Below, in pieces: positions 2,275 to 19,263 of a DNA stretch of 36,856 bases. The notes below the pieces were generated by a model. That model was given only the letters and a program-made list of their open reading frames with translations. It did not search any database and had not been told where the DNA came from. A program made the translations under genes and the position numbers. Positions within the stretch are counted from its first letter, which is position 1; each line of letters starts with the position of its first letter. Origin of the DNA: Candidatus Aerophobota bacterium (GTDB lineage Bacteria > Aerophobota > Aerophobia > Aerophobales > AE-B3A); the NCBI GenBank assembly GCA_030616535.1, contig JAUWXE010000003.1, positions 1-36,856 of the forward strand, in the 5' to 3' direction.

Positions 2275-3006
2275 GTGCCAAGGAAAGTCCTTAAAGACTC
2301 CAAGATTCCTTTATATCATCAGATAAGGGAGGATTTACGAGCCCGCATAGAGGAAGGAGAATGGCTTTCAGGGGAGCTTATTCCTGCAGAAAAGGAACTA
2401 TGTGCCGAATATAAGGTGAGCAAAATAACGGTCTTAGAGGCAATAAAGGGCCTTGTAAGAGAGGGACTGCTTTACCGAAAACAGGGCAAAGGAACATTTA
2501 TGGCTAAACCTAAGCTAGAGCAAAGTCTTAATAGGTTTTATAGTTTCACTGAAAGTATGCGGCAAAAAGGACTCGAACCAGAACAGAGGATATTAAAAGT
2601 AAAGTTTACTGAGGCTGACAAGCATTCTGCAAAACATCTTAGGATTAGAAAGGGAGAGAAGATCACTGAAATAGAAAGATTAAGATTAGTGAATGGCGAA
2701 CCCTTCTACCTAGAAACAATTATGATTCCAGTTAAGTTATGCCCTAATTTACACCTAAAAGACATTAGCTCCAAACCCCTGAATGATATATTAAGGAATG
2801 AATATAAGATACCTTTAATTAGAGCAAAAGAGTGCTTCGAGCCAATTATTGTCGACAGTTACGAAGCTCAAATGCTCGGCGTAAAGGATGGCGCACCTGC
2901 CCTGCTGCTAGAACACACTACTTATACCACGAAAAACCAGACAGTACTTTTCAGCAAGGGAATAATTAGAGGAGATCGGTGTAGGTATTATACCGAGCTT
3001 GAATAA
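2275..3006 (+). CDS. GntR-family transcriptional regulator, HutC subfamily (wHTH + UTRA)
   Basis: IPLYHQI...IPAEKEL...YKVSKITV..AI..LVREGLLYRKQGKGTF, then a UTRA domain ending RGDRCRY. Start moved to GTG 2275 after AGGAG (ORF track gives 2200). Confidence 0.93.
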   Translation: MPRKVLKDSKIPLYHQIREDLRARIEEGEWLSGELIPAEKELCAEYKVSKITVLEAIKGLVREGLLYRKQGKGTFMAKPKLEQSLNRFYSFTESMRQKGLEPEQRILKVKFTEADKHSAKHLRIRKGEKITEIERLRLVNGEPFYLETIMIPVKLCPNLHLKDISSKPLNDILRNEYKIPLIRAKECFEPIIVDSYEAQMLGVKDGAPALLLEHTTYTTKNQTVLFSKGIIRGDRCRYYTELE

Positions 3007-3277
3007 ATACAGATGTAAATACTAAGTAAACCCCGTTAGAATTCCACTAATGTGGAGAAAATACCTTGAAAATTGGGTATTATAAGAAGTGAGGTCCCTA
3101 TTTTATCCTTTATTTTTCCCGAGGTGGGGGGGATGTTGCCTTTGGGACGTGGTTCACTGAATATTTACATACAGATGTTCTCTCCAAGATCCTGATAATC
3201 TTCCGAGGAGGTAATATGTCTATTGGTCGACAACTCAGAGGGGAATTGGTCCCCCGGAGTATGTACAATCGGTTAAC

Positions 3278-3532
3278 ATGATGCATTTAGAGAGAAAAGA
3301 TAAGGTGGATATCTCTGACCAAATCGGAGCATGTACGGATTTTATGCCTAGGACCCGCAATGAAAGTATCTATGATGCTATTACCGCTGCGTATAGGGCA
3401 GAATTTGCAGGACTTGAGTTATTTCCTACAAAGGATCAGGCTGTCATGTTACATGAAAGTCTGTTGAGGAGATTAATTCTCCAAGCTAGGAGGTGCACAC
3501 AATGGGCTTCCAAATTCATGCAGGTGAGGTAA
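3278..3532 (+). pseudogene. Short ORF, possibly an N-terminal remnant of a xylose-isomerase-like TIM-barrel protein
   Basis: SIYDAITAAYRAEFAGLELFP resembles the 'EAI..A...GF.GVEL' start of AP-endonuclease-2-type barrels, but the ORF is only 84 aa. It is preceded by a 21-aa ORF (3216-3281) with a strong RBS and ATGA overlap. Confidence 0.3.
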
Positions 3533-5517
3533 GTATATTTTTCGATAGGCAGGCTAAGCCCGCTAAAATTAAGTTATTTGGTCAATCCTTTAATCAGCCA
3601 GCACATATAGTGTCCTATGGTCTATGGGGGAAAAAGGCCAAAGTAAGGAGAATTGCCTCAAAGAAAGAAGGAAAACTTACTGCTTATTTAGAAGTGGAAG
3701 AGAAAGAAGCTGTTTTTCGCGCAGAAACATCAAGGAATGGAATTAAATTAGCCCTTAGGAGCCTTACAGATGATAGAAGCTGTTATGCCCACCTCACTCT
3801 TTTCTTTCCAGAAGAATTAAAAATTTACTTTCCTGGGACTCCGGTGGGTTTCACCTCTGGAATGAGTGCTCGATTGTTTGATAGGAGAATGCCTGTTGGT
3901 TCTACCTTTGCAACTCCCGAAACCGAACATGGCTCTAAAGGGCTTTCCCATCAGTTAATTTTGGTAGAATCTGATCGAGGCTGTCTTTGTTTAACGAATC
4001 GATCTGATTTAAGGGAAGTCTTCTCCTTGGATGTGAGAGGTTTAGCTTATCCTAGGATTAAAATTAGCCGATCTGTAGAAGGTTTCTCTTTTACCTACTA
4101 TTGGCCGTCTGCGGTTCCTCTTTTCCTACGGTCTTTTCCCTCCTTACAAGAAGCTGTCAGGGACTACAAGCAGTGGATGGAAAATACGTTCAATCTCATT
4201 CCACTCGAGCAAAACTCTGGCCTGCCAGATTGGTTTTTCAACACCAAGCTGATTATAACCTTGGATATGTGGCGGTCAAATGGGCAAATAGCCCACAACT
4301 ATCAACATCTAATAGATCTTTGCAAGGACATGCGAAAAGCAAGGGCTCCTAAAGATACCTTATTCTACCTTCCTGGATGGAATTATAAGTACGATGCACA
4401 TTATCCAGAGTATTCCCCCACTCCAGAGCTTGGTGGTCCTAAAAAATTCAAGCAGATGGTGGATACGGCTCATGAGTGTGGATATCGAATTATGGTTCAT
4501 ACCATGCCATGTGGAGTGGATCCTTACCTACCTCAATTTGAAATTACGAAAAAGTGGGTTAAAAAAGGGCACATTTTTGCCAATTACGCTGGCTGGCCAG
4601 GAGGCTCTAAAGTCTTAAAATATGACTGGGAAGGTAAAAAAGAACAAATTTCCGGTACAATGGTCGATAATTCCATTCTTTTTCCGACGATTACTATCCC
4701 TGAAAAGTGTGAGGCTAAGTTGGTTATAGGGGGTTTAAGTGGTTTTGGAGGACAAATCAAGATTACAGTTGGTGAGCGAAGGCTAGAATCACCTCCTCAA
4801 TGGTTCATGAAAAATGACTCTTACACCTTTCCTTTTCCCTTCTTCTTCAAAGCCGGGACTAACCAAGTTCACCTGAAATTTACAGAAGCGGAGTTAACCA
4901 AAGATATGAATATCTGGTATCAGATTGTAGATTGTTTCCATTTTGCTCCTATCTGGACCTATCCCTTTGTAGGTACTGAGCTGAGTAACCCAGAATGGGC
5001 AAGTTACTTTACTGGAAGAGTATCTTCTTTGGTTCAGCAATTTGACATAGACGCCGTTCACCTTGATGCTCACATTTTAGGAGGAACCTCTTGGGAAGGA
5101 ACGGAACTTTTTAACCAGTTGCGGAAACAGATTCCAAAAACGGTATTTAGTTGCGAGGTCTTTGATGAGCCCGCTATGAGTTTTTTCTCTCTCATACAAA
5201 ATGGAGAAATTCTAACCAACAAAGAATTAAATGAATGGCGCAATCAATATACCCCTATTTTTTCCAACTTGATTTTAGACTATGTAAAGCTGTATCCGCA
5301 TTTATGTGTTCCGGAAGGATTAGTCCCAGTAGCAAAAGTATGCAATATAGAGAAGCCACCAACTGAGGTAAGTGAAGAACAACGAAAGCGAATCAGAGAA
5401 GTTGTAATGAATGCCGGAAAATACGGTGTTATCCCCAATCTAAGGTTGAATTACAAAGATTATGGTTTGGATCAGGAAACTAAACAAGTTATAGCGCAAT
5501 TGGTCGCCTCATTCTAA
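3502..5517 (+). CDS. Uncharacterised glycoside-hydrolase-like TIM-barrel protein (DUF6259/GH36-clan-like)
   Basis: N-terminal beta-rich region, then YLPGW...YD..YPEY.P..ELGG...FKQMVDTAHECGYRIMVH, NPEW, IDAVHLD and FSCE, the strand pattern of GH-type (beta/alpha)8 barrels. RBS AGGAGG precedes ATG 3502. Confidence 0.65.
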   Translation: MGFQIHAGEVSIFFDRQAKPAKIKLFGQSFNQPAHIVSYGLWGKKAKVRRIASKKEGKLTAYLEVEEKEAVFRAETSRNGIKLALRSLTDDRSCYAHLTLFFPEELKIYFPGTPVGFTSGMSARLFDRRMPVGSTFATPETEHGSKGLSHQLILVESDRGCLCLTNRSDLREVFSLDVRGLAYPRIKISRSVEGFSFTYYWPSAVPLFLRSFPSLQEAVRDYKQWMENTFNLIPLEQNSGLPDWFFNTKLIITLDMWRSNGQIAHNYQHLIDLCKDMRKARAPKDTLFYLPGWNYKYDAHYPEYSPTPELGGPKKFKQMVDTAHECGYRIMVHTMPCGVDPYLPQFEITKKWVKKGHIFANYAGWPGGSKVLKYDWEGKKEQISGTMVDNSILFPTITIPEKCEAKLVIGGLSGFGGQIKITVGERRLESPPQWFMKNDSYTFPFPFFFKAGTNQVHLKFTEAELTKDMNIWYQIVDCFHFAPIWTYPFVGTELSNPEWASYFTGRVSSLVQQFDIDAVHLDAHILGGTSWEGTELFNQLRKQIPKTVFSCEVFDEPAMSFFSLIQNGEILTNKELNEWRNQYTPIFSNLILDYVKLYPHLCVPEGLVPVAKVCNIEKPPTEVSEEQRKRIREVVMNAGKYGVIPNLRLNYKDYGLDQETKQVIAQLVASF

Positions 5518-5707
5518 GACACGTTCAGCTATAGCCAACGAGTTTCGTCTTTAGTTATGGCAGAGTTTTGCATTGTGTAACGTTAATGGCGTTTAGTTGA
5601 AATATAAGAAGGGACAAAAGGGGTCTTTGTCCTCTATTAATAATTTTTTATCCGAGGTGGTTCCCTTTTACTTTGTTACAGTGAGCCCTTTTGGGATTGA
5701 TATTCAC

Positions 5708-5838
5708 AGGCCGGAGGGAGGTGAGAGAGCAAATATGGCCATTAGCTGAGAAATAAAAGAAGGTTTTCCAAAAAGAGAAGTGTCGAAAAATTAATTTCTC
5801 TTTTTGGGAGCTTTCCACAAAAAATGAACGATGTCTGC
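5708..5838 (+). repeat. ~130-bp structured intergenic repeat, copy 1
   Basis: Direct repeat of 8092-8220. The core 5765-5806 matches 8147-8188 at 40/42. Internal inverted repeat CAAAAAGAGAA/TTCTCTTTTTG. Confidence 0.85.
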
Positions 5839-5897
5839 TGAACAGGGAGGAAAAAAGAATTTTCGAGTGAACTAATAATGTGACTGAGGAGGTGATG

Positions 5898-7931
5898 ATG
5901 GTTAACAATGTACTAACTAATAGGAATGCAGGAAAGAGGATAGGGGATTTTTTCCGAGAGATGAACGTCGATAACCCGTTTTGCGAAGGACTGGCTGAAA
6001 CATTCGGTTTCGGGTTGGGATACGACAGGGTTAAACACGAAGAATGTTTCCAGGATCTCAAACTTCATGCTGTTTCAAACCGGGGATCTAAGCAGATTAC
6101 AGAACAGGTTTGGAGAAATAGTACAGAATGTCTGGAAATCAGAGTTGAATACGAGCTCTTTCCAGAGCACAATGCGTTGAAATATCAGGGACGCATTCAC
6201 AATATCGGTGATAAACCCATACCACGAGTAAAAGATCTACACACGGTGCAATGGGGCTTTCCTGTTTCTACTATTGGACCACCCACAATCCACGGAGCGG
6301 GCGGAGGGATGAAGGATAACTTTTACCCACCCCCCTCATATCGTAGGTTTGATACCACCTTAGTTGAGTCGCGTTATGGTGATGGATTGATCGTTGGCTC
6401 AAGGTTGGGGCGATCCTCCAATGCATACCTTCCTTTCTTCGTTGTGAGCAATGGTGCTGATTCGCACGGGATCTTTTTTGCCCTTGGTTGGTCAGGAAAC
6501 TGGAAGGCAAAATTCCAATTGCATGAGACCAACCAGAACTCGCAACAGTTTCTTATTAAGGCATGGTTACCCGCGGTTGATCTGATGCTCATGTCTGGGG
6601 AGGAAATACCAATCCCGGAGGTTTTAATAGGCTTATATGATGGATCTGCTCTTAATGGAATGAATGCACTGCGTCGAACCATTTACGAGAGGTATGTTCC
6701 CTTACTGGCGGGCAAGAAAGTTGTTCCTTTAACTGGATTTGGTAGCTGGTTCGCTTACAATGGTATAGTTGGTGCTCCCAGAATTAATGAGCACAGCCTA
6801 AAAAAACAGGTAGATACGGCCGCAGAGATAGGCTGCGAGTACTTTGAGGTTGACGACGGTTGGGAGGTTGGCTGGCAGGAGGGTCTAGGATTCAATGAGC
6901 GAAGAATGGATTGGGTAGCCGATGAGGCGAAATTCCCTTTCGGTCTTGATAAATTTGCAAAGTATGTTGAAGACAAAGGGATGAAGTTTGGTCTCTGGCT
7001 TGATCTTGCTCGAACCACTCGACGATCCAATTTGCTCCAGGAACATCCTGAATGGGTGATCTGGTCAGAAAAGGATCCAGATAGAGGCCTTGTTAACTTC
7101 GGTCTGTCACAGGTTCGTGAGTGGGCAAAAGGTATTTTTAGTGAACTGGTTGAAAAGTACCATATGCAGTGGGTAAGAAACGATTACAACGTGGATCCCG
7201 AGTTCCAATGGACCAAATATGATCCTCCAGAGCGTAAGGGCATAACAGAGATCAGACACATAGAAGGTCTCTATGAGGTTATGGAGTGGGTTCTGAAGAA
7301 TTATCCCTCGTTGTGCGTTGAGCAGTGTGCAAGCGGAGGACGGATGATAGATTTGGGGACTCTCCGCCGAGCACATATGGTTTTTGTCAGTGATCACACA
7401 ATCAGCGCGGATATCTGTCGGTATCATCTCTCAGGGGCTAGCTGTTTCTTGCCATCCATACTGCTCCATACTGATCTTTCTCACCATACTGAGGCGTACC
7501 CCGATGTGTTCTACCTGAGCCGCTTCGGTGGTGCTTTAGGCATTGGTGATGACATTGCAAGATGGTCTCCGGTTTTGCAAGAGAAGGCTAAAAAGATGAT
7601 AGGTATATATAAATTGATCCGACATTTTCTTGCAGGTGATTTCTATCCGGTGTTCTCCCAACCTGTTTCGATAAGGGAATGGGATGGTTGGCAGTTCCAC
7701 GATCCCTCTTCTGATTCAGGCATAGTAGTAGTGTTTAGGGTGCAGAGCACACAGGCACAGAAACTGGTTAAGCTATCTGCACTCGATCGTCACAAGAGCT
7801 ATTCGTTGACTAACCTACTTATCAGTCAAGAAACGGTAGTTTCCGGCCAGACACTTCAGGACGAAGGTTTTGCAATTAGTCTTGAATGTGGTGAAGCGGA
7901 AATTTGGCGCTATCAGCCGTCCACGGGATGA
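5898..7931 (+). CDS. GH36 alpha-galactosidase-like glycoside hydrolase
   Basis: GRSS...LPFF, GWSGNW, EYFEVDDGW, KFPFGL, GMKFGLW, WVRNDYN (nucleophile Asp position), EQCASGG..IDLG, VSDHT (acid/base Asp position), GDFYP. RBS GAGGAGG precedes ATG 5895/5898 (ORF track gives 5880). Confidence 0.88.
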   Translation: MVNNVLTNRNAGKRIGDFFREMNVDNPFCEGLAETFGFGLGYDRVKHEECFQDLKLHAVSNRGSKQITEQVWRNSTECLEIRVEYELFPEHNALKYQGRIHNIGDKPIPRVKDLHTVQWGFPVSTIGPPTIHGAGGGMKDNFYPPPSYRRFDTTLVESRYGDGLIVGSRLGRSSNAYLPFFVVSNGADSHGIFFALGWSGNWKAKFQLHETNQNSQQFLIKAWLPAVDLMLMSGEEIPIPEVLIGLYDGSALNGMNALRRTIYERYVPLLAGKKVVPLTGFGSWFAYNGIVGAPRINEHSLKKQVDTAAEIGCEYFEVDDGWEVGWQEGLGFNERRMDWVADEAKFPFGLDKFAKYVEDKGMKFGLWLDLARTTRRSNLLQEHPEWVIWSEKDPDRGLVNFGLSQVREWAKGIFSELVEKYHMQWVRNDYNVDPEFQWTKYDPPERKGITEIRHIEGLYEVMEWVLKNYPSLCVEQCASGGRMIDLGTLRRAHMVFVSDHTISADICRYHLSGASCFLPSILLHTDLSHHTEAYPDVFYLSRFGGALGIGDDIARWSPVLQEKAKKMIGIYKLIRHFLAGDFYPVFSQPVSIREWDGWQFHDPSSDSGIVVVFRVQSTQAQKLVKLSALDRHKSYSLTNLLISQETVVSGQTLQDEGFAISLECGEAEIWRYQPSTG

Positions 7932-8220: not shown

Positions 8221-8242
8221 AAAAAATAAAGGAGGTAACAAA

Positions 8243-9520
8243 ATGTTGCATAAGTCTATTGGTGTCCAAGCAATAGGGATATTCATAATATCTCTGCTTA
8301 TTTGCTCCAGCGCAAGTGCTGTGAAAATTACCGTTTGGGATCAATACACCGCACCTGATATGTCACCTGCTGTGGACAAGTTGAATGCTCTTTTCGAAAA
8401 AGCAAATCCTGATATTCAAATTGAGAGAGTGGCGATGAGCGGAGAAGATATGAGGAAAGTTCTTAAGACCGCTTTGTTGGCAGGAGAAAAGCTGGATGTT
8501 GTTTACACTGAGGTTGGTCCGGGTCATATGGGTTTGCTTGCGCGAGCTGGTCTGTTGATTGATTTGACAGAGGTGTATGAGCGATATGGATGGACTGAAC
8601 GGGTGTATGAATTTCCAAGAACCATAGCGACATTTGATGGAAAAATTTGGGGAATTGGAAATGAATTAGAGTATTTAACAACCTACTACAACAAAGATGT
8701 ATTCCAGGAACTAGGACTTGAGATACCCAATAGTTATGAAGAATTGATCTGGATTTGTGAAAAGCTCAAATCTAAGGGATATATTCCATTTGGTTTCGCA
8801 AGTAAAGACTATTGGACTTCTGTGCATCCCTTTGCCGTTTTTGTAAACCTTCTGATTCCTAAAGATGAGTTGGATGAAATTCTCCTCGAAAAGGACAAAT
8901 GGGATCATCCTGGTTTGGCTCGAGCACTCGAGATATGGTCTATCGAGTTTCCGCAAAAGGGATACTTTTCAAAAGACTTTCAAGCCTTAGGTTACAACGA
9001 CGGAAATATGCTTTTTTATACTGAAAAAGCACCTATGCGTCTTACTGGAACATGGCTACTTGGAGATATCATGGAAAATGTGAAAACTTTCGAACCCAGT
9101 AGTTTCTTATTCCCCCAAATCAAAAAAGATATACCGGTTCGAGTCCCTATGGTGTGTGGTTCTGGCTACTGTGTTCCAAAAGCAACTCTGTATCCTGAAG
9201 AATGTTTCAAATATCTAGATTTCTTACTGTCCGACGAAGCTGGTAAAATATGGATAGAAGAAGCCAAACTTGTTCCACCTTTTCCTGTGAGCCTTGAAGG
9301 TCTTGAATTAGCTCCTTTACAAAAGGACGTAATACGGTCACTTTTCGAAATTGATGGTGGTCACTTTATTGATATTTACAGTACAGCAAGATGGTGGAAC
9401 GAACTCTGTTCCTTGATGCAGGGAATTTATGCTGGCAAAGAAACAGTAGACGGAACTATTAACAAGCTGAATAGGATATGGAAAGAAGAACGAGAAAAAG
9501 GACTTTTGAGATCTAGATAA
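8243..9520 (+). CDS. Sugar ABC transporter substrate-binding protein (CUT1)
   Basis: Signal peptide ending ASA, then ITVWD, FEKANPDIQIE, YYNKDVFQELGLEIPNSYEEL, TGTW. Strong RBS AAGGAGG. Confidence 0.92.
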   Translation: MLHKSIGVQAIGIFIISLLICSSASAVKITVWDQYTAPDMSPAVDKLNALFEKANPDIQIERVAMSGEDMRKVLKTALLAGEKLDVVYTEVGPGHMGLLARAGLLIDLTEVYERYGWTERVYEFPRTIATFDGKIWGIGNELEYLTTYYNKDVFQELGLEIPNSYEELIWICEKLKSKGYIPFGFASKDYWTSVHPFAVFVNLLIPKDELDEILLEKDKWDHPGLARALEIWSIEFPQKGYFSKDFQALGYNDGNMLFYTEKAPMRLTGTWLLGDIMENVKTFEPSSFLFPQIKKDIPVRVPMVCGSGYCVPKATLYPEECFKYLDFLLSDEAGKIWIEEAKLVPPFPVSLEGLELAPLQKDVIRSLFEIDGGHFIDIYSTARWWNELCSLMQGIYAGKETVDGTINKLNRIWKEEREKGLLRSR

Positions 9521-9545
9521 AGTAAAGCGGTGTGATTTGACTGAC

Positions 9546-9653: not shown

Positions 9654-10532
9654 ATGAGGAGATTAAAATTACTGGCAAGGCAAAGTGGGATTTACTGTTT
9701 TATAATACCTGCCTTGGCTCTGTATGTAGTGTTTATTTTTTATCCTATGATTCATACATTATTGCTAAGTTTTCACGAGTGGAATGGTGCCACAATAACA
9801 AAGAAATACGTGGGTTTTGCTAACTACGTAAAGCTTATCTACGATGATATATTTTTAATTTCCTTAATGCACAACGTAATTTGGTTAATGTTAAGTCTTG
9901 CTCTACCAGTTAGCCTTGGTTTGCTATTAGCATTGTTGTTGAGCGAGAAAACAAAAGGGAGGGAGCTTTTGACAATTATTTACTATCTTCCCGCTATGAT
10001 TTCTCTTGTTGCTGTAGGGATAATATGGAGCCTAATTTATCACCCACAGTGTGGCATTTTGAATGGAGTACTTAGATTGATTGGACTAGATTTTCTTACT
10101 CGTCCGTGGCTCGGTCAAACCCCTTGGGTTTTGCTAGCCCTGATAGCTGCTGGAGCATGGACCTACTTTGGATTCTGTACTCTACTTTTCCTTGCTGGAT
10201 TACAAAATATTGATCCTCAGTTGTACGATGCGGCTAAAGTCGATGGAGCTGGTAGATTACAGCAATTCTTGCACATTACAGTCCCTCTACTGAGGAACGT
10301 AACTACATTAGTTGTTATATGGACTACTATAGGTTCATTTAAAGTCTTTGACATTGTGTGGGCGATGACTCGGGGAGGTCCGCATCACTCCACAGAAGTC
10401 GTTACCAGTTGGTTATATAAGCAAGCATTTGAAGCATCACGAGTAGGCTATGGAGCTGCTATATCAATATGCTTACTTGCCATTATTCTCATTTTAACAC
10501 TTGCATATTTATCTTATGCTGAGAGGGAGTAA
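9654..10532 (+). CDS. Carbohydrate ABC transporter permease (MalF/UgpA-like)
   Basis: YVGFANY, hydrophobic helices, EAA-loop LYDAAKVDGA, MTRGGP, GYGAAIS. Confidence 0.93.
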   Translation: MRRLKLLARQSGIYCFIIPALALYVVFIFYPMIHTLLLSFHEWNGATITKKYVGFANYVKLIYDDIFLISLMHNVIWLMLSLALPVSLGLLLALLLSEKTKGRELLTIIYYLPAMISLVAVGIIWSLIYHPQCGILNGVLRLIGLDFLTRPWLGQTPWVLLALIAAGAWTYFGFCTLLFLAGLQNIDPQLYDAAKVDGAGRLQQFLHITVPLLRNVTTLVVIWTTIGSFKVFDIVWAMTRGGPHHSTEVVTSWLYKQAFEASRVGYGAAISICLLAIILILTLAYLSYAERE

Positions 10533-10533
10533 A

Positions 10534-11596: not shown

Positions 11597-13150
11597 GTGT
11601 ACTTTCTGGGATTAGATGTGGGAACTTCTGTGGTCAAAGGTGCAATTTTTACCGAGAAAGGTCAGCCGGTAGCGTTAAACCGATTAGAATACCAATTAAA
11701 TTACCCTCATCCAGGATGGATTGAAATTGATCCCGATCTTGTTTGGGATAAAGTTAAAAAGCTGATTTCAGAGTTAGTCGGGAGCAGCAATGTTAAACCT
11801 GCGGAAATTGTAAGTATTTGTCCTTCTGTTCTGGGAGAAGCTATTGTTCCCATAAACAAGAAGGGAAAACCTCTCTATAACTTCATAGAAGGATGGGATG
11901 GAAGGGGAAACTACTACGAAGAAGAAATATCGTTTCTGGAAGAAAAGATTGGGAGATATAAAATCTACGACATATCTGGCGTTACTTTATCTTCACTGGC
12001 TTCTATCCATAAAATACTCTGGTTAATAAAGCATAAACCAGAAATCTACGAGAAAACTTTCAAATTTCTTTTTATGGAAGACTTCATTATTGCTAAACTG
12101 ATCGGTGAATATTTTGTAAACTATTCTTTGGCTTGCCGTTCTATGCTTTTTGACAGGGTAGAGAAAAAATGGTCGGAAGAAATTCTTGGGGAAGCCGCTC
12201 TTAGTCCAGACCTTTTTTCATTACCTGTACCCTCAGGAACAATAGTTGGATCAGTGGCGGAGTTTGTTGCCAGCGAGCTTGGATTGAGCGAGAAAACCAA
12301 AGTGGTCACAGGAGGCCATGATCAATGTTGTGCTGCTTTAGGAGTAGGGATAATTTCAGAAGGTCCGGCTTTTAACGGGATGGGGACGGTGGAGGTAATA
12401 GCTGGAGTTACCGAAAGGCCGAGATTAGAGCATCACCTTTCAGATAGTAATATCGCCAATTATTGTCATGTATTAAAAGATAAGTATCTTCTTTTGGGCG
12501 TCAACCCGACTTTTGGCATGGCGTTGAAATGGTTTAAGGATGTATTTGTAAAAGGAAGAAATTCTATTGAGAACAGAGAGGGTAGAGGCATTTACGAGAT
12601 TATCATCGAGGAAGCCGAACAATCTTCACCGGGAGCTAAGGGTTTATTCTTTCTTCCTCATCTTCAGGGAACTTTTTCTGGAAGTTTTCAAGCTCTCAAC
12701 CCAAACTCTAGAGCTGCCTTCATAGGTCTTAGGTCCTTTCATAAGATTGGTGATATGGTGAGGGCTATCCTGGAAGGTGTATGTTTTGAAACTAGAAATC
12801 TCATAATTGAGATGGAGAAAGTCTTAGAAATTACCGATTTGAGAGTGTCTGGTGGACCTACTAATTCAGATTTATGGATGAAGATTAAGGCCGATATTTC
12901 TCAAAAGAAGCTGTTGGTTCCCGAAAAAAGTGAGGCTGGATTGATAGGAACACTAATTTTATCCACTATAGCTACCGGTGTTTATAAGGATACCGAAGAG
13001 GCTATATTGAGTATTTTTAAAGTGAAAAGATCTATAACACCAGAAGAAAAAATTGGGGTATTTTACACTTCTCGGTTTAATATCTTCAAAAAAATATATC
13101 CAACTTTATTTGAAATCTACGAACAGATGGGTTCTCTGAATAATCGATAA
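11597..13150 (+). CDS. FGGY-family carbohydrate kinase (xylulokinase-like)
   Basis: LGLDVGTS, PHPGWIEIDP, GGHDQ, GTVE, FLPHLQG, RAILEGV, VSGG. RBS AGGAGG precedes the GTG start. Confidence 0.92.
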   Translation: MYFLGLDVGTSVVKGAIFTEKGQPVALNRLEYQLNYPHPGWIEIDPDLVWDKVKKLISELVGSSNVKPAEIVSICPSVLGEAIVPINKKGKPLYNFIEGWDGRGNYYEEEISFLEEKIGRYKIYDISGVTLSSLASIHKILWLIKHKPEIYEKTFKFLFMEDFIIAKLIGEYFVNYSLACRSMLFDRVEKKWSEEILGEAALSPDLFSLPVPSGTIVGSVAEFVASELGLSEKTKVVTGGHDQCCAALGVGIISEGPAFNGMGTVEVIAGVTERPRLEHHLSDSNIANYCHVLKDKYLLLGVNPTFGMALKWFKDVFVKGRNSIENREGRGIYEIIIEEAEQSSPGAKGLFFLPHLQGTFSGSFQALNPNSRAAFIGLRSFHKIGDMVRAILEGVCFETRNLIIEMEKVLEITDLRVSGGPTNSDLWMKIKADISQKKLLVPEKSEAGLIGTLILSTIATGVYKDTEEAILSIFKVKRSITPEEKIGVFYTSRFNIFKKIYPTLFEIYEQMGSLNNR

Positions 13151-13228
13151 GGAGAAAATGAGATATATCTCATTATTAACCAAAAATACATGTTCCCATT
13201 GGGGACATTGCAAAGGATGGAGAAAAAA

Positions 13229-14587
13229 ATGGAAGCAACATATGATCCTTTAGTTTTCAACAGTGAGTATGAAAGTGTCCATAAAGAAAAGTTTATTATC
13301 GCTACATATTATGTGGAACACAAAGCGGAAGGTGAGATTTTGGACCATTTGAATGTTATCCAGCCTATGCTGCTACAGGGTTCTACCGGGACCTGGCAAA
13401 AAATTCCTGAAGATACTGCAAAAATAAGAGAACTTTTTACCCCTAAGGTCATCGGATATTATCCTGTTCCCACCGAAAGCGAAAACCATAAGAAGGCGAT
13501 TGTAAATATGGCCTTACATACAGAATCTTTCTCTCACAATTTTCCCATGTTGTTGATAGCTATAGCCGGAAATATTCTTTTCTTTCCTGGAGTAATTAAA
13601 TTGGTGGGTATTCATTTTCCTAAAAGCTTTTGCCAGGAGTTCACCGGACCCAAATTTGGTATCTCTGGCATCCGAAAACTCTTAGGAGTTCCTGAAAGAC
13701 CCTTCGTATTAACCATCATTAAACCCAAAATGGGCATGACACCGCAAGAAACTGCAGAACAGGCATACAAAGCTGCAATCGGGGGATCGGATATGGTTAA
13801 AGATGATGAGATGTGTAGCGAGACCTTTAACTGTTCCTTTAAAGATCGAGTCAGGATGGTTAGCCAGGCATTGAAAAGAGCTTATGAGGAGAACGGGCAA
13901 AAGACTCTCTACTTTGTGAGTATCACTGACAGACCCAGTAAGATGAAGCACAAAGCCAAACTAGCTATAGAAATGGGGGCTGGCGGCCTTCTGGTGGGCT
14001 TTACCGCTGGTTACTCTGTCATTCGAGATCTAGCTAAGGATTCGGATATTAACGTACCCATACTTATGCATCCTACCAGTGTAGCTTCCCAGACTTCAGT
14101 CTTTAGATTCCCTGTTATCTGTAAGCTAGCACGATTGGCCGGTGCTGACTTAGTGCTCAATGCTACCCGCTGGGCTACTTTGCCCTTTGTATCTTTAGAG
14201 GATGGCGTAAGAGCTAATCAAATCCTGCAGGCTCCTATGTATCATATTAATCCATCTCTTTCTGCTCCCAGTGGAGGAATGCACCCTGGTCTGGTTCCTG
14301 AATTAGTGAAAGAATGTGGTCCCGATATTTTTATTCCTGCAGGAGGAGGTATTCACGGTCATCCTAAAGGTACAACCGCTGGAGCAAAAGCTATGCGACA
14401 GGCTATTGAGGCTACTATGAGAGAAATATCACTGGAAGAAGCCTCTAAGGCTCCGGATAACCGAGAGCTGAAAGATGCAGTGGAGAAATTTGGAATCTTT
14501 CATCGTCCCACCACTAGATGGTTTAGAACAGTTTCAGAGTGGGAGAATAAAACTTCTATATTGACAGGTTACGATTACAGTAAGTAA
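13229..14587 (+). CDS. RuBisCO-like protein (form IV RLP)
   Basis: STGTW, AGN, GPKFGISGIR, IIKPKMG, KDDE (carbamylated Lys and Mg ligands), SGG and GGGIHGHP are present. Equivalents of R295, H327 and K334 are missing. ATG 13229 follows GGAG (ORF track gives 13190). Confidence 0.93.
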   Translation: MEATYDPLVFNSEYESVHKEKFIIATYYVEHKAEGEILDHLNVIQPMLLQGSTGTWQKIPEDTAKIRELFTPKVIGYYPVPTESENHKKAIVNMALHTESFSHNFPMLLIAIAGNILFFPGVIKLVGIHFPKSFCQEFTGPKFGISGIRKLLGVPERPFVLTIIKPKMGMTPQETAEQAYKAAIGGSDMVKDDEMCSETFNCSFKDRVRMVSQALKRAYEENGQKTLYFVSITDRPSKMKHKAKLAIEMGAGGLLVGFTAGYSVIRDLAKDSDINVPILMHPTSVASQTSVFRFPVICKLARLAGADLVLNATRWATLPFVSLEDGVRANQILQAPMYHINPSLSAPSGGMHPGLVPELVKECGPDIFIPAGGGIHGHPKGTTAGAKAMRQAIEATMREISLEEASKAPDNRELKDAVEKFGIFHRPTTRWFRTVSEWENKTSILTGYDYSK

Positions 14588-14619
14588 AAACATAATTTAT
14601 TGCACAAGGAGGGACGAAA

Positions 14620-15603
14620 ATGAGAAAAATTAAGTTCTCGGCTGGTTTAGCAGCATTTGGAAATGGAATCGACCGCTATGTAAACTTGGGATACAAAGAA
14701 AGTGTAACTGTTGAAAAAATGATTGAATTGGCTGGTGCTGTAGAAGACCTGGAGGGTGTTGAACTTGTAGAAAACTGGCATGTTAATAAAAATAATTTAA
14801 ATGCGATCAAAGAATGTTTAGAAAAATATAGGTTTAAAGTATCAATGGTCATTCCAGATCTTTGGGCAACTAAGAAATGGGCTATGGGAAGTCTAAGTGC
14901 AAAGGATGCAAAAACAAGGGAGGAGGCTAAGGAAACTATTATTAATGCTATAGAAATGGCTAAGAGGATTGATTGTGATTTAATCGATGTTTGGTTTGGC
15001 CAGGACGGATGGGATTACTCCTTTGAGGTTGACTATCTCCAATCCTGGCAATTTTTAGTAGAGGGATTGAGGGAAGTTGCTGATTATGACGCCGGTATAA
15101 GAATTGGGATAGAGCATAAAATTAAAGAGCCGCGATGCTTTGCTCATGTAGGCTCCATTGGGAAACTTATGCTCCTTATCAAAGAAGTAGAAAGACCCAA
15201 TATAGGAGTAGTATGTGATTTTGGCCACTGTTTTGAGGGTTATGAGAATCTGGGACAGGTACTGGCTCTAATGAAACATTATGGGGTAAAACTGTTTCAT
15301 ACTCACTTCAATGATAACTATCGTCTATGGGATGACGATCTGATTTCTTGTTCTGTACATACCATTGAATACATTGAAGCTTTCTATTGGTTACAAAAGG
15401 TAGATTACCAGGGTTGGTACTCCCTTGATATTTTCCCCTTCCGTATTGATAGCATCAAAGCTGCTACGGAAAGCATAAAATGGATAAAAGCTCTGGCAGG
15501 AGTGGTAGATAAAGTTGGAGTTGATAAGATTGATGAGGTCATCAAAGATGGCGATGCCTGTGATGCTCAGAAGCTCATTCGAGAGGCAATATTTGGCTTT
15601 TAG
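14620..15603 (+). CDS. Xylose/L-rhamnose-isomerase-like sugar isomerase (TIM barrel)
   Basis: WFGQDG, EHKIKEPR, DFGH, HFNDN..WDDD and SLDIFP match the two-metal ligand pattern of aldose-ketose isomerases. Confidence 0.85.
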   Translation: MRKIKFSAGLAAFGNGIDRYVNLGYKESVTVEKMIELAGAVEDLEGVELVENWHVNKNNLNAIKECLEKYRFKVSMVIPDLWATKKWAMGSLSAKDAKTREEAKETIINAIEMAKRIDCDLIDVWFGQDGWDYSFEVDYLQSWQFLVEGLREVADYDAGIRIGIEHKIKEPRCFAHVGSIGKLMLLIKEVERPNIGVVCDFGHCFEGYENLGQVLALMKHYGVKLFHTHFNDNYRLWDDDLISCSVHTIEYIEAFYWLQKVDYQGWYSLDIFPFRIDSIKAATESIKWIKALAGVVDKVGVDKIDEVIKDGDACDAQKLIREAIFGF

Positions 15604-15674
15604 ATAAGGTTTTCTACGATATCCTTTACAAAAATGAATTTGAAAGGTTTGCACTACATTTCATAGGAGGCTAC

Positions 15675-16640
15675 ATGGAAAAAAGGCTACCAAGAGAGAA
15701 ATTGATTGAAATGTATAGGAAAATGTTAAGGATTAGACACTTTGAAGATAGAATTTACCGACTCTTCTTAAGCGGGACTATGCCAGGGACTATTCATCTT
15801 TCCCAGGGACAGGAGGCAATAGCAGTAGGAGTATGTGCCAATCTCAGTAAGGATGACATAATTACCGGCACCCATCGATCTCATGGTGAAGCTCTGGCTA
15901 AAGGTGTTTCTATGAAATCATTGATGGCCGAACTCTTTGCTCGGTCTAACGGTTGTTGCAAGGGGAAAGGCGGCTCGATGCATGTGGGTGATATTGATGT
16001 AGGAATGCTTCCGGCTATAGCTATAGTGGGAGGAGGAATTCCTGTGGCTACCGGTATAGCACTGGCCTTTAAGATGAAAAGATTAGATCGGGTAGCCGTT
16101 TCCTTCTTCGGAGACGGAGCTTCCAATGAAGGTGCTTTCCATGAGGCGATCAATATGGGAGCTATTTGGGATCTACCCGTCATCTATGTTTGTGAGAACA
16201 ACCTCTATGGAGCCTCTACTCATGTTAGCAAGGTAATGAAGTTAAAAGATATCGCTAATCGAGCTTTCTCTTACGGGATACCGGGGGTGGTGGTGGACGG
16301 CAATGATGTAGTGGCGGTATATGAGGTAGCAAGGAAGGCTATAGATAGAGCAAGGAAAGGTGAGGGTCCAACGTTAATTGAGTGCAAGACCTACCACATA
16401 GGAGGTCATTCTCGTTCTGATCCCAGGCAATATAGAGATAAGGAAGAAGAAAAGAGGTGGCTGGCCAAGGATCCCATCCCCAGAATGAAAAAGAAATTGA
16501 TTGCGACGAATATTTTGAGCTCAGAAAAATCAGAGAATATAGAGGCCGCAATTGAAAAAGAAATAGACGAGGCTATAAAATTTGCCCAGAGTAGTCCCTC
16601 GCCGAAACCAGAAGATGCTCTAAGGGATGTATTTGCTTAA
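15675..16640 (+). CDS. TPP-dependent dehydrogenase E1 alpha subunit (AcoA/PdhA-like)
   Basis: HLSQGQEA, THRSHG, GKGGSMH, TPP motif GDGASNEG...ENN, GHSRSDP. Confidence 0.93.
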   Translation: MEKRLPREKLIEMYRKMLRIRHFEDRIYRLFLSGTMPGTIHLSQGQEAIAVGVCANLSKDDIITGTHRSHGEALAKGVSMKSLMAELFARSNGCCKGKGGSMHVGDIDVGMLPAIAIVGGGIPVATGIALAFKMKRLDRVAVSFFGDGASNEGAFHEAINMGAIWDLPVIYVCENNLYGASTHVSKVMKLKDIANRAFSYGIPGVVVDGNDVVAVYEVARKAIDRARKGEGPTLIECKTYHIGGHSRSDPRQYRDKEEEKRWLAKDPIPRMKKKLIATNILSSEKSENIEAAIEKEIDEAIKFAQSSPSPKPEDALRDVFA

Positions 16641-16656
16641 AGTTAAGGAGAATAAA

Positions 16657-17670
16657 TTGAGAAATTTAACTGTAGCGGAAGCTTTAAGAGAAGCGATAAG
16701 AGAAGAGATGAGGAGGGACGAGTCAGTCTTTTGTATTGGAGAGGATATAGGTATCAAAGGAGGCTGGGGAGGGGCTTTTACCGTTACTCTTGGGTTGTCG
16801 GAAGAATTTGGACACGAAAGGATTCTAGATACCCCCATCTCGGAGCTTGGTATAGCTGGTATAGCTGTAGGGGCAGCTCTTGCTGGAATGAGACCCATAG
16901 CCGATGTAGAATACGGAGATTTTATCTTCTTGGCCATGGATCAGCTCATAAATAATGCAGCTAAACTCCGATATATGTCAGCCGGCAAGTTAAAGGTTCC
17001 TATGGTTATGCGAATTCCCGTAGGAGCTTCAGGCAGAGGAGCCCAACATGCTCAATCCCTAGAGTCTTATTTTGTTCATGTTCCTGGACTCAAAGTTGTC
17101 TGTCCTTCTAATGCCTATGATGCCAAAGGACTTCTAAAAACAGCTATAAGGGACGATAATCCCGTAATGTTCTTTGAACACAAGCTTCTATACGGCGCTA
17201 AAGGAAGAAGGGAAGGTATAGATGCTCGAGGAGAAGTACCGGAAGAAGAGTATTTACTTCCTTTCGGAGTAGCTGAGATAAAAAGAGAGGGAGAGGATGT
17301 AACAGTAGTGGCCACCTTAAGAATGGTTTACGCAGCGTTATCGGCCGCTGAGGAACTGGAAAAAAGGGGGATAAGCGTGGAAGTGATAGATCCTCGAACT
17401 CTCACTCCTTTGGATTTAGAAACGATTTTAAAATCTGTTCATAAAACAAATAGGTTGATTATTGTTCATGAGGATAATTTAACTGGGGGATGGGGAGCAG
17501 AGTTAGCCACTCGGGTAACTAGTGAAGCTTTTGACTGGCTAGATGTTCCTGTAACGCGGATTGCTGCCCCAGATACCCCTGTTCCCTTTGCTCCCATAAT
17601 GGAAAATTATTTTGTCCCGAACAGTGAAGATATAGTTAGAACTGCAGCGAGTGTATTGGGTAAAAGTTAA
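16657..17670 (+). CDS. TPP-dependent dehydrogenase E1 beta subunit (AcoB/PdhB-like)
   Basis: GEDIG, DTPISE, DQLINNAAK, AQHAQS, FFEHK, IDPRTL.PLD. TTG start after AAGGAG (ORF track gives 16627). Confidence 0.93.
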   Translation: MRNLTVAEALREAIREEMRRDESVFCIGEDIGIKGGWGGAFTVTLGLSEEFGHERILDTPISELGIAGIAVGAALAGMRPIADVEYGDFIFLAMDQLINNAAKLRYMSAGKLKVPMVMRIPVGASGRGAQHAQSLESYFVHVPGLKVVCPSNAYDAKGLLKTAIRDDNPVMFFEHKLLYGAKGRREGIDARGEVPEEEYLLPFGVAEIKREGEDVTVVATLRMVYAALSAAEELEKRGISVEVIDPRTLTPLDLETILKSVHKTNRLIIVHEDNLTGGWGAELATRVTSEAFDWLDVPVTRIAAPDTPVPFAPIMENYFVPNSEDIVRTAASVLGKS

Positions 17671-17701
17671 AGATCACAATATAAAATTAAGGAATTGCAA
17701 A

Positions 17702-18610
17702 ATGGCACTTATCCCAATGAAAAAAATGTTAGTGAAGGCCCAAAAGGAAAGATACGCAGTAGGGTACTTTGAGTCTTGGAATTTGGAGTCTCTGCAGGCA
17801 ATTATTAATGCAGCAGAAGAGGTGTGCTCATCAGTAATCGTTGGATTCAGCGGTAGATTCTTAGCCGAGCCGGGCAGGTTAATGCCCGAAAAAATCGAAT
17901 ATTACGCTTCCATGGGAAAGGTGTTCGGTGAAAACACCTCGGTCCCAACAGCCTTAATTTTGAATGAAGCGTCTGATTTTGCATGGATCGAAAAGGCCAT
18001 AGAACTTGGCTTTACCGCTGTAATGTTTGAGGATGAATCATTGTCTGCCGTAAAAGAGGTGAATTTTATTAAAAAGGCAGTTAAAATAGCTCATTCAAAA
18101 GGTGTTTCTGTAGAAGCTCAATTGGGAATTTTGCCAGTAGCAGAAAAAAGAGGAGTCACCGAGGAGATAGCAAAAGATATTTCTTTAACCGATCCCGAAA
18201 AAGCTGCTCAATTTGTAAAAGAAACTGGTATTGATGCCCTGTCGATTTCTGTCGGCAATATTCACTCTTTAACCAAAGGTAAGGCGGAAATTGATTTTGA
18301 TAGGCTTAAACACATTAGAGAAGTGGTAGATATACCCTTAGTTTTACATGGAGGAACAGGACTTGCAGATGATACCGCGAGAAGAGCAATCAAATTAGGA
18401 ATATGTAAAATCAATATTGGAGCTTTACTTAAACAGACTTTCATTAAGGGGATAAAAAAGAAGCTTGGTACTTACTTTAACGGCTATTCAGACCCCCATG
18501 AATTTTTAGGATCAGGCAAAGAAAGGGATATATTAATGGCTGGTGCGCTAGAGATGAGGGATGTAATTAAAGAAAAAATGAAAGTTTACGGCTCATCTGG
18601 CAGAGCATAA
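17702..18610 (+). CDS. Class II fructose/tagatose-bisphosphate aldolase family protein with an atypical active site
   Basis: YAVGYF, GVSVEAQLG, TDPEKA..FV.ETGIDAL..SVGNIH, PLVLHGGTG, KINI. The canonical HLDH is replaced by ILNE. ORF track gives start 17651. Confidence 0.85.
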   Translation: MALIPMKKMLVKAQKERYAVGYFESWNLESLQAIINAAEEVCSSVIVGFSGRFLAEPGRLMPEKIEYYASMGKVFGENTSVPTALILNEASDFAWIEKAIELGFTAVMFEDESLSAVKEVNFIKKAVKIAHSKGVSVEAQLGILPVAEKRGVTEEIAKDISLTDPEKAAQFVKETGIDALSISVGNIHSLTKGKAEIDFDRLKHIREVVDIPLVLHGGTGLADDTARRAIKLGICKINIGALLKQTFIKGIKKKLGTYFNGYSDPHEFLGSGKERDILMAGALEMRDVIKEKMKVYGSSGRA

Positions 18611-18636
18611 TAAACATAGATATAAAATGAGGATAG

Positions 18637-19263
18637 ATGAAAATGAAGATGAGAGCAGCTATTTATCACGGGATTCAGGATGTGAGATTGGAAGAAGTAG
18701 AAATTCCTCAGATTAACTCTGATGAAGTATTAGTGAAAATAAAGGTGGCTTTAACTTGTGGTACGGATCGGAAGATGTACCTCAGAGGTTATCATCTAGT
18801 TAATCCTCCCTTTGTTTTTGGCCATGAATTTGCTGGAGATATCGTAAAGGTGGGAGCTAATGTAAGAAATTTCGAAGAAGGTATGAGAGTAGTAGCAGCA
18901 AATTCTGCACCCTGCAATAAATGTTTTTACTGTAAGATAGGTAGGGAAAGTTTATGTAAAGATCTAACCTTCAGACTTAACGGTGCCTTTGCTGAATATG
19001 TAAAAATCCCTAGAGATATCGTAGAACAGAATTTACTGGAAATTCCGTGCAACATCTTTTACAAAGAGGCAGCTCTGGTAGAACCCTTGGCCTGCGTTGT
19101 ACACGGGATACAAGAGTCAAACATAAGGCTAGCCCAACTTCCACATTTTCAAAAAAAATGTGGTGTTTATGGTGGTTTGCGAGTTCATTCAGTCACTATA
19201 TTTGAAGAGTGCCATGTTTTTATGGGTTTCATAACCTCGGAGGGAATACCAAGATTCTTATAG
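18637..19263 (+). pseudogene. 3'-truncated Zn-dependent (MDR) sugar-alcohol dehydrogenase
   Basis: CGTD, GHEFAG, C..C..C...C and EPLAC are present. Homology stops at ~19131, just before the GxGxxG Rossmann motif; the remaining ~43 codons are unrelated. Confidence 0.85.

Follow-up and report, generated by a model that had tools for sequence, protein, structure and literature searches.

What does a RuBisCO-like protein do in an operon built for sugar utilisation? The question is raised by a stretch of 36,856 nucleotides from Candidatus Aerophobota bacterium, an uncultured marine-sediment bacterium (contig JAUWXE010000003.1, positions 1 to 36,856; this whole stretch is called the window below). 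Here, a form IV RuBisCO-like protein (RLP) is encoded between a carbohydrate kinase and a putative sugar isomerase, followed by the two subunits of a thiamine-diphosphate enzyme of the E1 type. To our knowledge, only a handful of RLPs have a known reaction, and the remainder pose a long-standing question on the origin of RuBisCO chemistry. Judged from gene content and family assignments, there is about an even chance that the operon encodes an undescribed catabolic route, in which the RLP would rearrange a ketose phosphate and the thiamine enzyme would cleave the product into an acyl unit and a sugar phosphate. The pairing of RLP and E1, which recurs in distant relatives, probably marks an undescribed way of splitting sugars. 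An initial annotation of the window had this pathway right in outline and wrong as to which genes form its conserved core.

The RuBisCO-like protein and its place in the family

The RLP belongs to the RuBisCO large-subunit superfamily, with matches above cutoff to PF00016 (152.5 bits) and PF02788 (23.2 bits). Its true start is likely at position 13229, giving a protein of 452 amino acids (aa), since the database gene call P0002 and the relative P0003 both begin with MEA(T/I)YDPL. It is not a bona fide RuBisCO, scoring 235.6 bits on TIGR03326 (cutoff 497.45), 226.7 on NF003252 (cutoff 438) and 122.7 on NF010002 (cutoff 489). Nor does it have the full residue set of a carboxylase. With the relevant positions mapped by motif, in an alignment without any true RuBisCO, 'HPTSV' stands in place of the RuBisCO His-Arg, leaving no Arg after the strand-5 His, and the loop-6 stretch 'LPFVSLEDG' contains no Lys. 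The KPK, KDDE, GN and STGTW motifs, the His after strand 5 and the glycine-rich phosphate motifs are all kept.

The closest characterised relative is MtnW (YkrW) of Bacillus and Geobacillus (Protein Data Bank (PDB) entries 2zvi and 2oek), the 2,3-diketo-5-methylthiopentyl-1-phosphate (DK-MTP-1-P) enolase, at 222 bits and about 36-40% identity. In common they have the RuBisCO large-subunit fold families, the KDDE motif for metal and carbamate, the phosphate motifs GGG..GHP and S/A-G-G, and the absence of a loop-6 Lys. Yet the window RLP is not MtnW. It scores 294 bits on NF007095 (cutoff 409) and 253.5 on TIGR03332 (cutoff 513.6), and in an alignment with 2zvi, 2oek and three Bacillota MtnW sequences scoring >600 bits, the Lys of the MtnW 'FGKL' motif is replaced by Asn128 ('AGNIL'). 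This 'FGK' lysine, which we take to be Lys98 of the Geobacillus enzyme, is said to have been identified as the catalytic base of MtnW by Imker et al. in 2007. MtnW, for its part, has lost the second Lys of KPK, which the window RLP keeps, and the window RLP differs further by a 5-residue deletion after the His motif and by a C-terminal extension. It adjoins a kinase, an isomerase and an E1 instead of mtn genes, whereas E1 occurs in 0/4 of the MtnW loci that served as controls.

Phylogeny points the same way. A tree of 77 rows, which covered MtnW and two further Bacillota RLP groups and held no Rhodospirillum rubrum-type reference, separates the window RLP from all three groups and makes it sister (SH-like approximate likelihood-ratio test support of 99) to an uncharacterised clade of 48 rows, itself supported at 100. 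Constraining it to the MtnW clade costs 142 log-likelihood units (p-AU 3e-49 in the approximately unbiased (AU) test). The apionate RLPs OiaX, OiaC and OiaT (Carter et al. 2018, as cited in PMC6302742) are likewise encoded in operons for sugar catabolism, where they follow a kinase step and act on a keto sugar that carries a phosphate. The window RLP scores 139 bits on the OiaX model against a cutoff of 700. The apionate route also employs a DUF1537 kinase and an acid sugar made by an oxidoisomerase, and among the 30 window open reading frames (ORFs) scanned there is neither of these genes, nor any mtn gene, just as first annotated.

Mechanistically, the best analogue of the carbonyl shift proposed below is the R. 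rubrum RLP (DeepYkr type), a 5-methylthio-D-ribulose-1-phosphate 1,3-isomerase. This enzyme performs a carbonyl shift on a ketose 1-phosphate by successive enolisations and feeds a cupin methylsulfurylase, not a thiamine E1. The window RLP matches the solved relative 2qyg (PDB) at 158 bits, more weakly than it matches MtnW. It belongs to no characterised clade among those compared (MtnW, OiaX and RuBisCO; the R. rubrum type lay outside the comparison), and the corresponding claim of the initial annotation holds on the MtnW and OiaX cutoffs, on the replacement of Lys by Asn128 and on the AU test.

The window RLP is also isolated within its own surroundings. Besides a single relative at 89% identity, all others among the matches listed are at most 51% identical, and no member of its own lineage above 51% identity appears among 32 JGI metagenome loci or 80 genome loci. 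None occurs in plasmids, where the best matches are MtnW at 36-40%.

Recurring neighbours of the related proteins

Relatives at greater distance are numerous. Of 8000 candidates scored in a word-filtered protein search, 4234 proteins reached E <=1e-20, some of which may belong to other RLP groups. When one genome per species was scanned, 213 relatives were confirmed, and the best 80 loci were studied. They span 13 named phyla, Bathyarchaeia included, and their carriers are found in soils, sediments and groundwater. Neighbours were counted by tblastn of these 80 loci with several representatives per family; 31 of them, in which the RLP gene is flanked by at least 6 kb in either direction, form a full-context subset. 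The counts (all loci, then full context) are as follows:

E1 alpha or E1 beta: 58/80; 25/31
E2 lipoyl acyltransferase: 37/80; 21/31
FGGY kinase: 42/80; 17/31
Xylose-isomerase-like barrel: 44/80; 24/31
RpiR regulator: 33/80; 18/31
GntR/UTRA regulator: 12/80; 3/31
Uroporphyrinogen decarboxylase (URO-D)-like: 25/80; 15/31
GH140 apiosidase-like: 4/80; 2/31
Window-type aldolase: 1/80; 0/31
GH36-like, DUF6259 and the window's binding protein, each: 0/80; 0/31

In these 58 loci, E1 lies within 10 kb of the RLP gene, and E1 alpha is on the RLP strand in 56/57, at a median start-to-start distance of 2.7 kb. The usual order is regulator, RLP, kinase, isomerase, sometimes URO-D, sometimes E2, then E1 alpha and E1 beta; E2 sits beside E1 in 36/58. 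The 32 metagenome loci, some of them duplicates of genome loci, contain E1 alpha in 17, the isomerase in 20, the kinase in 16, E2 in 5 and GH140 in 2. The pattern is absent from control regions that reach about 8 kb to either side of 13 RLP genes of four other Bacillota groups (by MtnW-model score, 4 bona fide MtnW, 4 at about 400 bits, 3 at 230-362 and 2 at about 225): E1, E2, isomerase and URO-D are each found in 0/13, next to one weak FGGY match.

The synteny that the initial annotation had proposed to look for in unrelated genomes, namely kinase, RLP, isomerase, E1 and aldolase, is therefore present in part (RLP with E1 alpha/beta, and largely the kinase and isomerase) and fails for the aldolase, whose homologues occur near related RLPs at L034 and L145 only (1/80 genome and 1/32 metagenome loci). 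Both glycosidase-like genes, the importer and the class II aldolase are local additions, peculiar to the window and outside the conserved pathway, and the Zn dehydrogenase, which had been listed with them in the cluster, does not recur either. An E2 lipoyl acyltransferase, which relatives usually add, had not been foreseen. The E2 of relatives has lipoyl, E3-binding and catalytic domains and points to oxidative cleavage to an acyl-CoA rather than to a transketolase-like transfer.

The pairing is repeated within the genus of the window itself. An RLP identical to that of locus L002 (Candidatus Aerophobetes bacterium) lies in a genome ranked in this genus. RLP paralogs of genus-mates at 38-51% identity each adjoin their own E1 alpha/beta, and next to further paralogs at 38-41% there are FGGY genes as well. 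The window E1 beta is 78-81% identical to the nearest genus-mate copy, compared with 91-94% for the housekeeping protein PlsX, so the window E1 is not a strict ortholog and these are paralogous modules, not one locus. A third RLP module of a genus-mate (L163, G004:C33:33447-50721) consists of a sugar-binding regulator, a CUT1 binding protein, two permeases, an RLP of 40% identity, E1 alpha, E1 beta, a D-2-hydroxyacid dehydrogenase and two FGGY kinases, with no isomerase and no E2. In the genus-mate cluster L002, a gene of the histone-deacetylase family (acetyl-group hydrolases) lies between kinase and E1 alpha (L002:7129-7974).

The operon and its host genome

The operon is a co-oriented run on the + strand, from a regulator through a fragment of an alcohol dehydrogenase (ADH), as read from an ORF listing with Pfam and NCBIfam scans. 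It is given here together with the convergent pair that follows it:

2200-3006, + strand: GntR/UTRA (HutC-type) regulator (Pfam UTRA 120 bits, GntR 68.7 bits)
3493-5517, + strand: DUF6259 protein, possible glycoside hydrolase, unproven (Pfam DUF6259 38.9 bits)
5880-7931, + strand: GH36 (alpha-galactosidase family)-like glycosidase (Melibiase 117.9 bits, plus GH36 N and C domains)
8243-9520, + strand: CUT1-type binding protein (Pfam SBP_bac_1/SBP_bac_8)
9654-10532 and 10501-11382, + strand: two CUT1-type permeases (BPD_transp_1 in each)
11597-13150, + strand: FGGY carbohydrate kinase (Pfam FGGY_N, FGGY_C)
13190-14587, + strand: RLP, form IV (RuBisCO_large 152.5 bits, RuBisCO_large_N)
14620-15603, + strand: xylose-isomerase-like TIM barrel, putative sugar isomerase/epimerase (Pfam AP_endonuc_2 103 bits)
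15675-16640, + strand: E1 alpha, thiamine-diphosphate, pyruvate dehydrogenase (PDH)/acetoin-dehydrogenase type (Pfam E1_dh 300.4 bits)
16627-17670, + strand: E1 beta (Transket_pyr 152.2 bits, Transketolase_C 135.5 bits)
17651-18610, + strand: divergent class II aldolase, fructose-bisphosphate aldolase (FBA)/tagatose-bisphosphate type (Pfam F_bP_aldolase, PF01116, 231 bits)
18637-19263, + strand: truncated Zn-dependent ADH, N-terminal catalytic domain (ADH_N only)
19458-20534, - strand: full-length Zn-ADH, convergent to the cluster (ADH_N plus ADH_zinc_N)
20556-21470, - strand: second xylose-isomerase-like barrel (AP_endonuc_2; IolM-like NCBIfam model, 207 against a cutoff of 450 bits)

Pfam confirms the run as it was first annotated, apart from the ADH, which is a fragment, and the DUF6259 protein, whose status as a glycosidase is not demonstrated. 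The limits, set at 2275 and 19131, move to 2200, where the regulator ORF begins, and 19263, where the last ORF ends. The regulator combines a GntR winged helix with a UTRA effector domain, as in the HutC subfamily. From the kinase to the ADH fragment, intergenic gaps are at most 72 bases or reading frames overlap, the aldolase frame overlapping the end of E1 beta. Sediment-metagenome contigs of another study (run X2) carry the same gene order with 1-9% of letters different and cover the kinase-RLP, isomerase-E1 alpha, E1 alpha-E1 beta and E1 beta-aldolase junctions; the operon thus exists outside this assembly and is no assembly oddity. A scan for promoter-like sites (41 against 42.2 expected) and terminator-like sites (12 against 16.1 expected) was uninformative. 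The link of the convergent pair at 19458-21470 to the pathway is uncertain.

At the upstream end of the operon, the importer is CUT1-like in its binding protein and two permeases, as had been proposed, and is incomplete in that no ABC ATPase gene lies within the cluster. The binding protein matches only generic oligosaccharide binders; its nearest solved structures bind chitin oligosaccharides or xylo-oligosaccharides, at 3e-22 or weaker. Two glycosidase-like proteins had been annotated, and one of them is supported. The GH36-like protein has the alpha-galactosidase AgaB as its best PDB match (1.3e-35) and weakly matches a beta-L-arabinopyranosidase model (56.7 against a cutoff of 1100 bits). 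The DUF6259 protein is without a demonstrable glycosidase relative, with no NCBIfam match and, in the PDB, no more than a marginal likeness to GH13 over 49 residues (E 0.0018).

At the downstream end, the class II aldolase is below cutoff on all 21 NCBIfam models (best 236.8 against 423), so no named aldolase specificity applies. What had been called a Zn dehydrogenase is an N-terminal fragment of 208 aa, whose homology to the full-length ADH (19458-20534) ends at about residue 167-175. No Rossmann or cofactor domain follows it in any frame, and tblastn recovers no further piece in the region. In runs X2 and X3, loose contig ends fall at 19152-19352, contigs of other runs show small insertions and deletions at 19203-19406, and no contig of the likely source run X1 among those listed spans 19217-19317. 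The truncation may reflect a strain-variable junction or an assembly join.

Some neighbouring genes are recorded here as side observations. An ORF at 1595-2095, just upstream of the regulator, has a weak rve_3 integrase-core match below cutoff (E 8.7e-4) and may be a mobile-element remnant at the cluster edge. A ThiD2-ThiE fusion (thiamine phosphate synthase) lies at 21664-22866, about 200 bases past the divergent end of the cluster, and on a Rhizobium plasmid with a homologous E1-E2 operon, thiC-O-S-G-E-D follows directly downstream; thi genes near E1 clusters may be a supply link for the thiamine enzyme or a coincidence. An ADP-forming acyl-CoA synthetase with CoA-binding, succinyl-CoA-ligase-like and ATP-grasp domains, 11 kb from the cluster at 30421-32526, could convert an acyl-CoA product to acid and ATP. 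The remaining window genes are housekeeping genes: the thiamine phosphate synthase fusion, TsaE/TsaB, BioY, an EF-G paralog, FabH, PlsX, the ADP-forming acyl-CoA synthetase and radical SAM genes.

The enzymes around the RLP give clues to the chemistry. The window kinase scores 268.8 bits on the NCBIfam XylB model (cutoff 380.25) and 203.7 bits on LsrK; it is XylB/GntK/LsrK-like, neither rhamnulokinase-like nor AplK. A scan of 37 cluster kinases placed 31 with the rhamnulokinase models (E <=1e-60); one of these, inspected individually, scores 446.8 bits against a cutoff of 527.95. The isomerase has PDB entry 3ktc, a 'xylose isomerase', as its best match (8.3e-51) and shares 30-47% identity with 39 homologues encoded beside related RLPs; Glu, Asp and His columns are invariant, and all 40 proteins match xylose and rhamnose isomerase models weakly.

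E1 alpha and E1 beta carry the thiamine-binding domains of a heterodimeric E1 and are 55-81% identical to the E1 genes beside related RLPs. E1 alpha scores 375.4 bits on TIGR03182 (cutoff 393.85) and E1 beta 380.5 on NF006667 (cutoff 321). Unlike in 2-oxoacid or acetoin complexes, no E2 or E3 is encoded with them, and no 2-oxoacid_dh domain occurs in the window. The nearest annotated E1 alpha homologue examined (48.9% identity) belongs to an Enterococcus faecium plasmid operon of acetoin-type context, in which lpdA, E1 alpha, E1 beta, E2 and a butanediol dehydrogenase are accompanied by a sigma-54 regulator, and a Rhizobium E1 homologue adjoins a sorbitol phosphotransferase system. This likeness to the acetoin dehydrogenase AcoA/AcoB/AcoC/AcoL, which extends to the E2 domains of relatives, has its limits: beside the window E1 there is no E2, E3 or butanediol dehydrogenase, and the constant partners are the RLP and sugar genes.

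Could an E2 be supplied from elsewhere in the host? The genome assembly comprises 1.08 Mb in 121 contigs, is 81% complete and has a single RuBisCO-family gene. Its only E2 lies on contig C72. The only good match to lipoamide dehydrogenase (E3), at C29:3136-4502, is split into neighbouring pieces of 287 and 268 bits, and one of the two contains 3 in-frame TGA stops; this could reflect a frameshift, an assembly error or a broken gene. Elsewhere, two stand-alone ORFs of 787 and 802 aa (C4:1417-3780 and C54:1856-4264) span E1 alpha and E1 beta matches and look like fused E1 alpha-beta proteins; a 342-aa ORF lies beside each, with no E2 adjacent.

A candidate route and its competitors

The proposed route would begin with import of an oligosaccharide by the CUT1 system and its hydrolysis by the GH36-like enzyme, perhaps also the DUF6259 protein. 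The xylose-isomerase-like barrel would turn the freed sugar into a ketose, which the FGGY kinase would phosphorylate. Through the carbamylated-Lys/Mg site common to the superfamily, the RLP would enolise the ketose phosphate and either move the carbonyl along the chain or tautomerise a diketone, as the R. rubrum RLP and MtnW do; the former shifts the carbonyl of methylthioribulose 1-phosphate. The outcome would be an alpha-hydroxy-ketone beyond the reach of ordinary enzymes. E1 alpha/beta with thiamine diphosphate would then attack this carbonyl and break the C-C bond, so that a phosphorylated aldehyde leaves and an acyl equivalent of 2 or 3 carbons is retained. An E2 next to E1 would, in most relatives, hand the acyl unit to CoA (as acetyl-, glycolyl- or lactyl-CoA). 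In the window, which has no adjacent E2, the acyl equivalent might pass to the single E2 on the other contig, or be released or transferred, and the class II aldolase might serve as a further cleavage step; the end of the route may differ here from that in the sister clade. There is precedent for the cleavage chemistry, as QncN/QncL, a PDH-like E1/E2 pair, converts ketose phosphates to a glycolyl thioester in quinocarcin biosynthesis.

Which sugar would enter this route? Rhamnulokinase phosphorylates C1 of a 6-deoxy-ketohexose, and a ketose 1-phosphate would fit because the RLP appears to keep the carbonyl-side phosphate site and to have lost the distal one. The sister clade, in which rhamnulokinase-like 1-kinases predominate, therefore probably handles a 6-deoxy-hexose. 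For instance, a 6-deoxy-hexulose 1-phosphate would yield lactyl-CoA and glyceraldehyde 3-phosphate if cleaved after the carbonyl had shifted by two steps, and acetyl-CoA and a tetrose phosphate after three. The L-rhamnose route RhaA/RhaB/RhaD offers a comparison: most kinases of the sister clade resemble its rhamnulokinase, the isomerases match rhamnose isomerase models weakly, and the RhaD aldolase step appears replaced by the RLP and E1/E2. The window kinase is not of the rhamnulokinase type, and with an XylB/LsrK-like kinase and a divergent RLP, the window probably handles a different sugar from the main clade.

Accessory genes of the sister loci add to this picture. Four loci (L050, L029, L064 and L075) have an LsrF cluster; in L050 the gene for LsrF, a 3-hydroxy-5-phosphonooxypentane-2,4-dione thiolase, lies divergently upstream of the RLP operon (L050:8051-8932, 492.8 bits against an equivalog cutoff of 297). 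Alongside it are a gene of the ribulose-phosphate 3-epimerase family, a short-chain dehydrogenase/reductase and E2. A 4HBT thioesterase occurs in 2 loci and a free lipoyl-domain protein in 3. The LsrF, epimerase, 4HBT and free lipoyl neighbours fit a theme of acyl-CoA and deoxy-ketose, and with the rhamnulokinase-like kinases, LsrF makes the sister clade lean towards deoxy sugars. In Bathyarchaeia, Omnitrophota and Clostridia, GH140 apiosidase-like genes (Pfam 239.8 bits) are part of the cluster or adjoin it; together with GH4 genes in some loci, they point to plant or algal glycans, and with GH140 in 4/80 loci the sugar may also be branched. Some URO-D-like genes carry a fusion to corrinoid-binding domains with matches to methyltransferase corrinoid proteins, which suggests demethylation of a methylated sugar or methylthio group. 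At L037:13877-15721 and in three other Spirochaetota loci, one URO-D/MtaA-like methyltransferase domain is fused with two B12-binding domains and encoded downstream of RLP, E2 and E1; unfused URO-D-like genes are present in 25/80 loci.

Several observations weigh against the proposed route. The window RLP sits on a long branch (0.62) and has a single close relative in the records, so its function is transferred from sisters at <=51% identity, on which the synteny argument rests too, and two positions conserved in the sisters are changed: the Glu before STGTW is Gln, and the second His of HxSH is Ser. The window kinase is of the minority XylB/GntK/LsrK-like type (6/37). E1 alpha scores almost at the PDH equivalog cutoff, which is compatible with a plain pyruvate dehydrogenase. 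No E2 is adjacent in the window or in three genus-mate clusters, and an oxidative acyl-CoA step in this genus is therefore an assumption. Among full-context loci, 6/31 have the RLP without E1, and the URO-D/corrinoid genes, present in 15/31, are accounted for only loosely and are the least explained part of the cluster.

The most serious competitor concerns the nature of E1. E1, with E2 where present, could be an ordinary pyruvate or acetoin dehydrogenase at the end of the pathway, and the RLP, as an isomerase or epimerase, would supply a conventional aldolase route. The class II aldolase of the window would then give dihydroxyacetone phosphate and an aldehyde reduced by the ADH, and the RLP product would never be a substrate of the thiamine enzyme. 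Indeed, E1 beta passes its PDH subfamily model, the E2 of relatives scores best on PDH acetyltransferase models (340 against a cutoff of 445 bits), aldolase and ADH genes lie directly downstream in the window, and class II aldolase (PF00596) genes are found in 6 related loci. However, a housekeeping PDH is not expected on the same strand, within about 3 kb of an accessory RLP, in 13 phyla, nor duplicated alongside each RLP paralog of one genus. The window-type aldolase recurs in just one genome and one metagenome locus, and the ADH is truncated. On balance, we regard this account as unlikely.

The initial annotation had likened the operon to the non-oxidative D-apiose route, which comprises an isomerase, apulose kinase and split transketolase according to PMC13001218 and PMC13753588. 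A substrate such as D-apiose or a related cell-wall sugar, degraded by an oxidative counterpart in which E1 (with E2) replaces the transketolase, is improbable in our judgement, even though GH140 genes occur in 4/80 genome and 2/32 metagenome loci and apionate breakdown involves characterised RLPs. ApsI/AplK/AptA-AptB (E. coli SE15 ECSF_RS02670-02715) follow the same logic, with an isomerase, FGGY kinase and two-subunit thiamine enzyme. The likeness stops at superfamily level: this route has no RLP or E2, AptA and AptB are split transketolases akin to E1 as members of one superfamily (24-33% identity over parts), and orthology of kinase and thiamine enzyme is rejected, as AplK is 22.7% identical to the window kinase (64 bits), AptB is 24% identical to E1 beta (58 bits) and AptA does not match E1 alpha among the matches listed. 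In addition, the OiaX score of the RLP is far from its cutoff, most kinases of the clade are rhamnulokinase-like, and on chemical reasoning a thiamine enzyme can cleave apulose 4-phosphate without an RLP step.

Least probable of all, and in our view a slim prospect, is a salvage variant for 5-methylthioribose or 5-deoxyribose, by-products of S-adenosylmethionine, in which the sugar would be isomerised and phosphorylated, an R. rubrum-like RLP would yield 1-methylthio- or 1-deoxy-xylulose 5-phosphate and E1/E2 would cleave this to an acyl-CoA and glyceraldehyde 3-phosphate: the MtnW enolases are the nearest characterised relatives (2zvi, 1e-64), the host has an MtnA-type isomerase above cutoff on contig C109 (456 against 279 bits), URO-D/corrinoid methyltransferase genes, a family that includes methylthiol methyltransferases, occur in 25/80 sister loci, and a methyl ketone such as deoxyxylulose phosphate would be a fitting substrate for an E1 of acetoin type, but the Lys-to-Asn change, the sub-cutoff MtnW scores and the AU test (on a tree without an R. 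rubrum-type reference) speak against it, as do an MtnK not found and an MtnB-like match below cutoff in the 81%-complete genome, a kinase of FGGY and an isomerase of xylose-isomerase type instead of MtnK and MtnA, and a cluster with a sugar-type regulator, an oligosaccharide importer and glycosidase(s).

To return to the preferred reading, the operon probably encodes a sugar pathway that depends on an RLP and has a new partner enzyme, probably together with a new reaction of the RLP. In the Hakubella genome paper (PMC7325909), the RLP of that organism and its relatives are described as of 'unknown' function, and Moorella thermoacetica is named as having a related RLP. A literature search of full texts without their supplements, where a prior mention is possible, brought up no study that connects an RLP with E1/E2, an FGGY kinase or a rhamnulokinase. 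A bolder generalisation, which we offer tentatively and consider rather doubtful, is that RLP and E1/E2 form a widespread, unrecognised, aldolase-free mode of sugar breakdown in anaerobes, in which a carbonyl walk and an oxidative cut would yield an acyl-CoA (acetyl-, glycolyl- or lactyl-CoA), so that the energy of the bond is saved, and a triose or tetrose phosphate. RLP/kinase pairs, of which a genome in this genus has several, would adapt one cleavage engine to different sugars, 6-deoxy-hexoses for the main clade and some other sugar for the window.

Taken together, these loci bring to light a very large uncharacterised group of RLPs, archaea included, with a constant and unusual partner, the thiamine-dependent E1 with or without E2, and the pairing leaves enzymologists with four to five defined proteins for reconstitution. 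If the preferred reading is true, it would represent a new reaction type in the RuBisCO superfamily and a new thioester-forming route for the breakdown of sugars, probably deoxy sugars, in anoxic carbon cycling.

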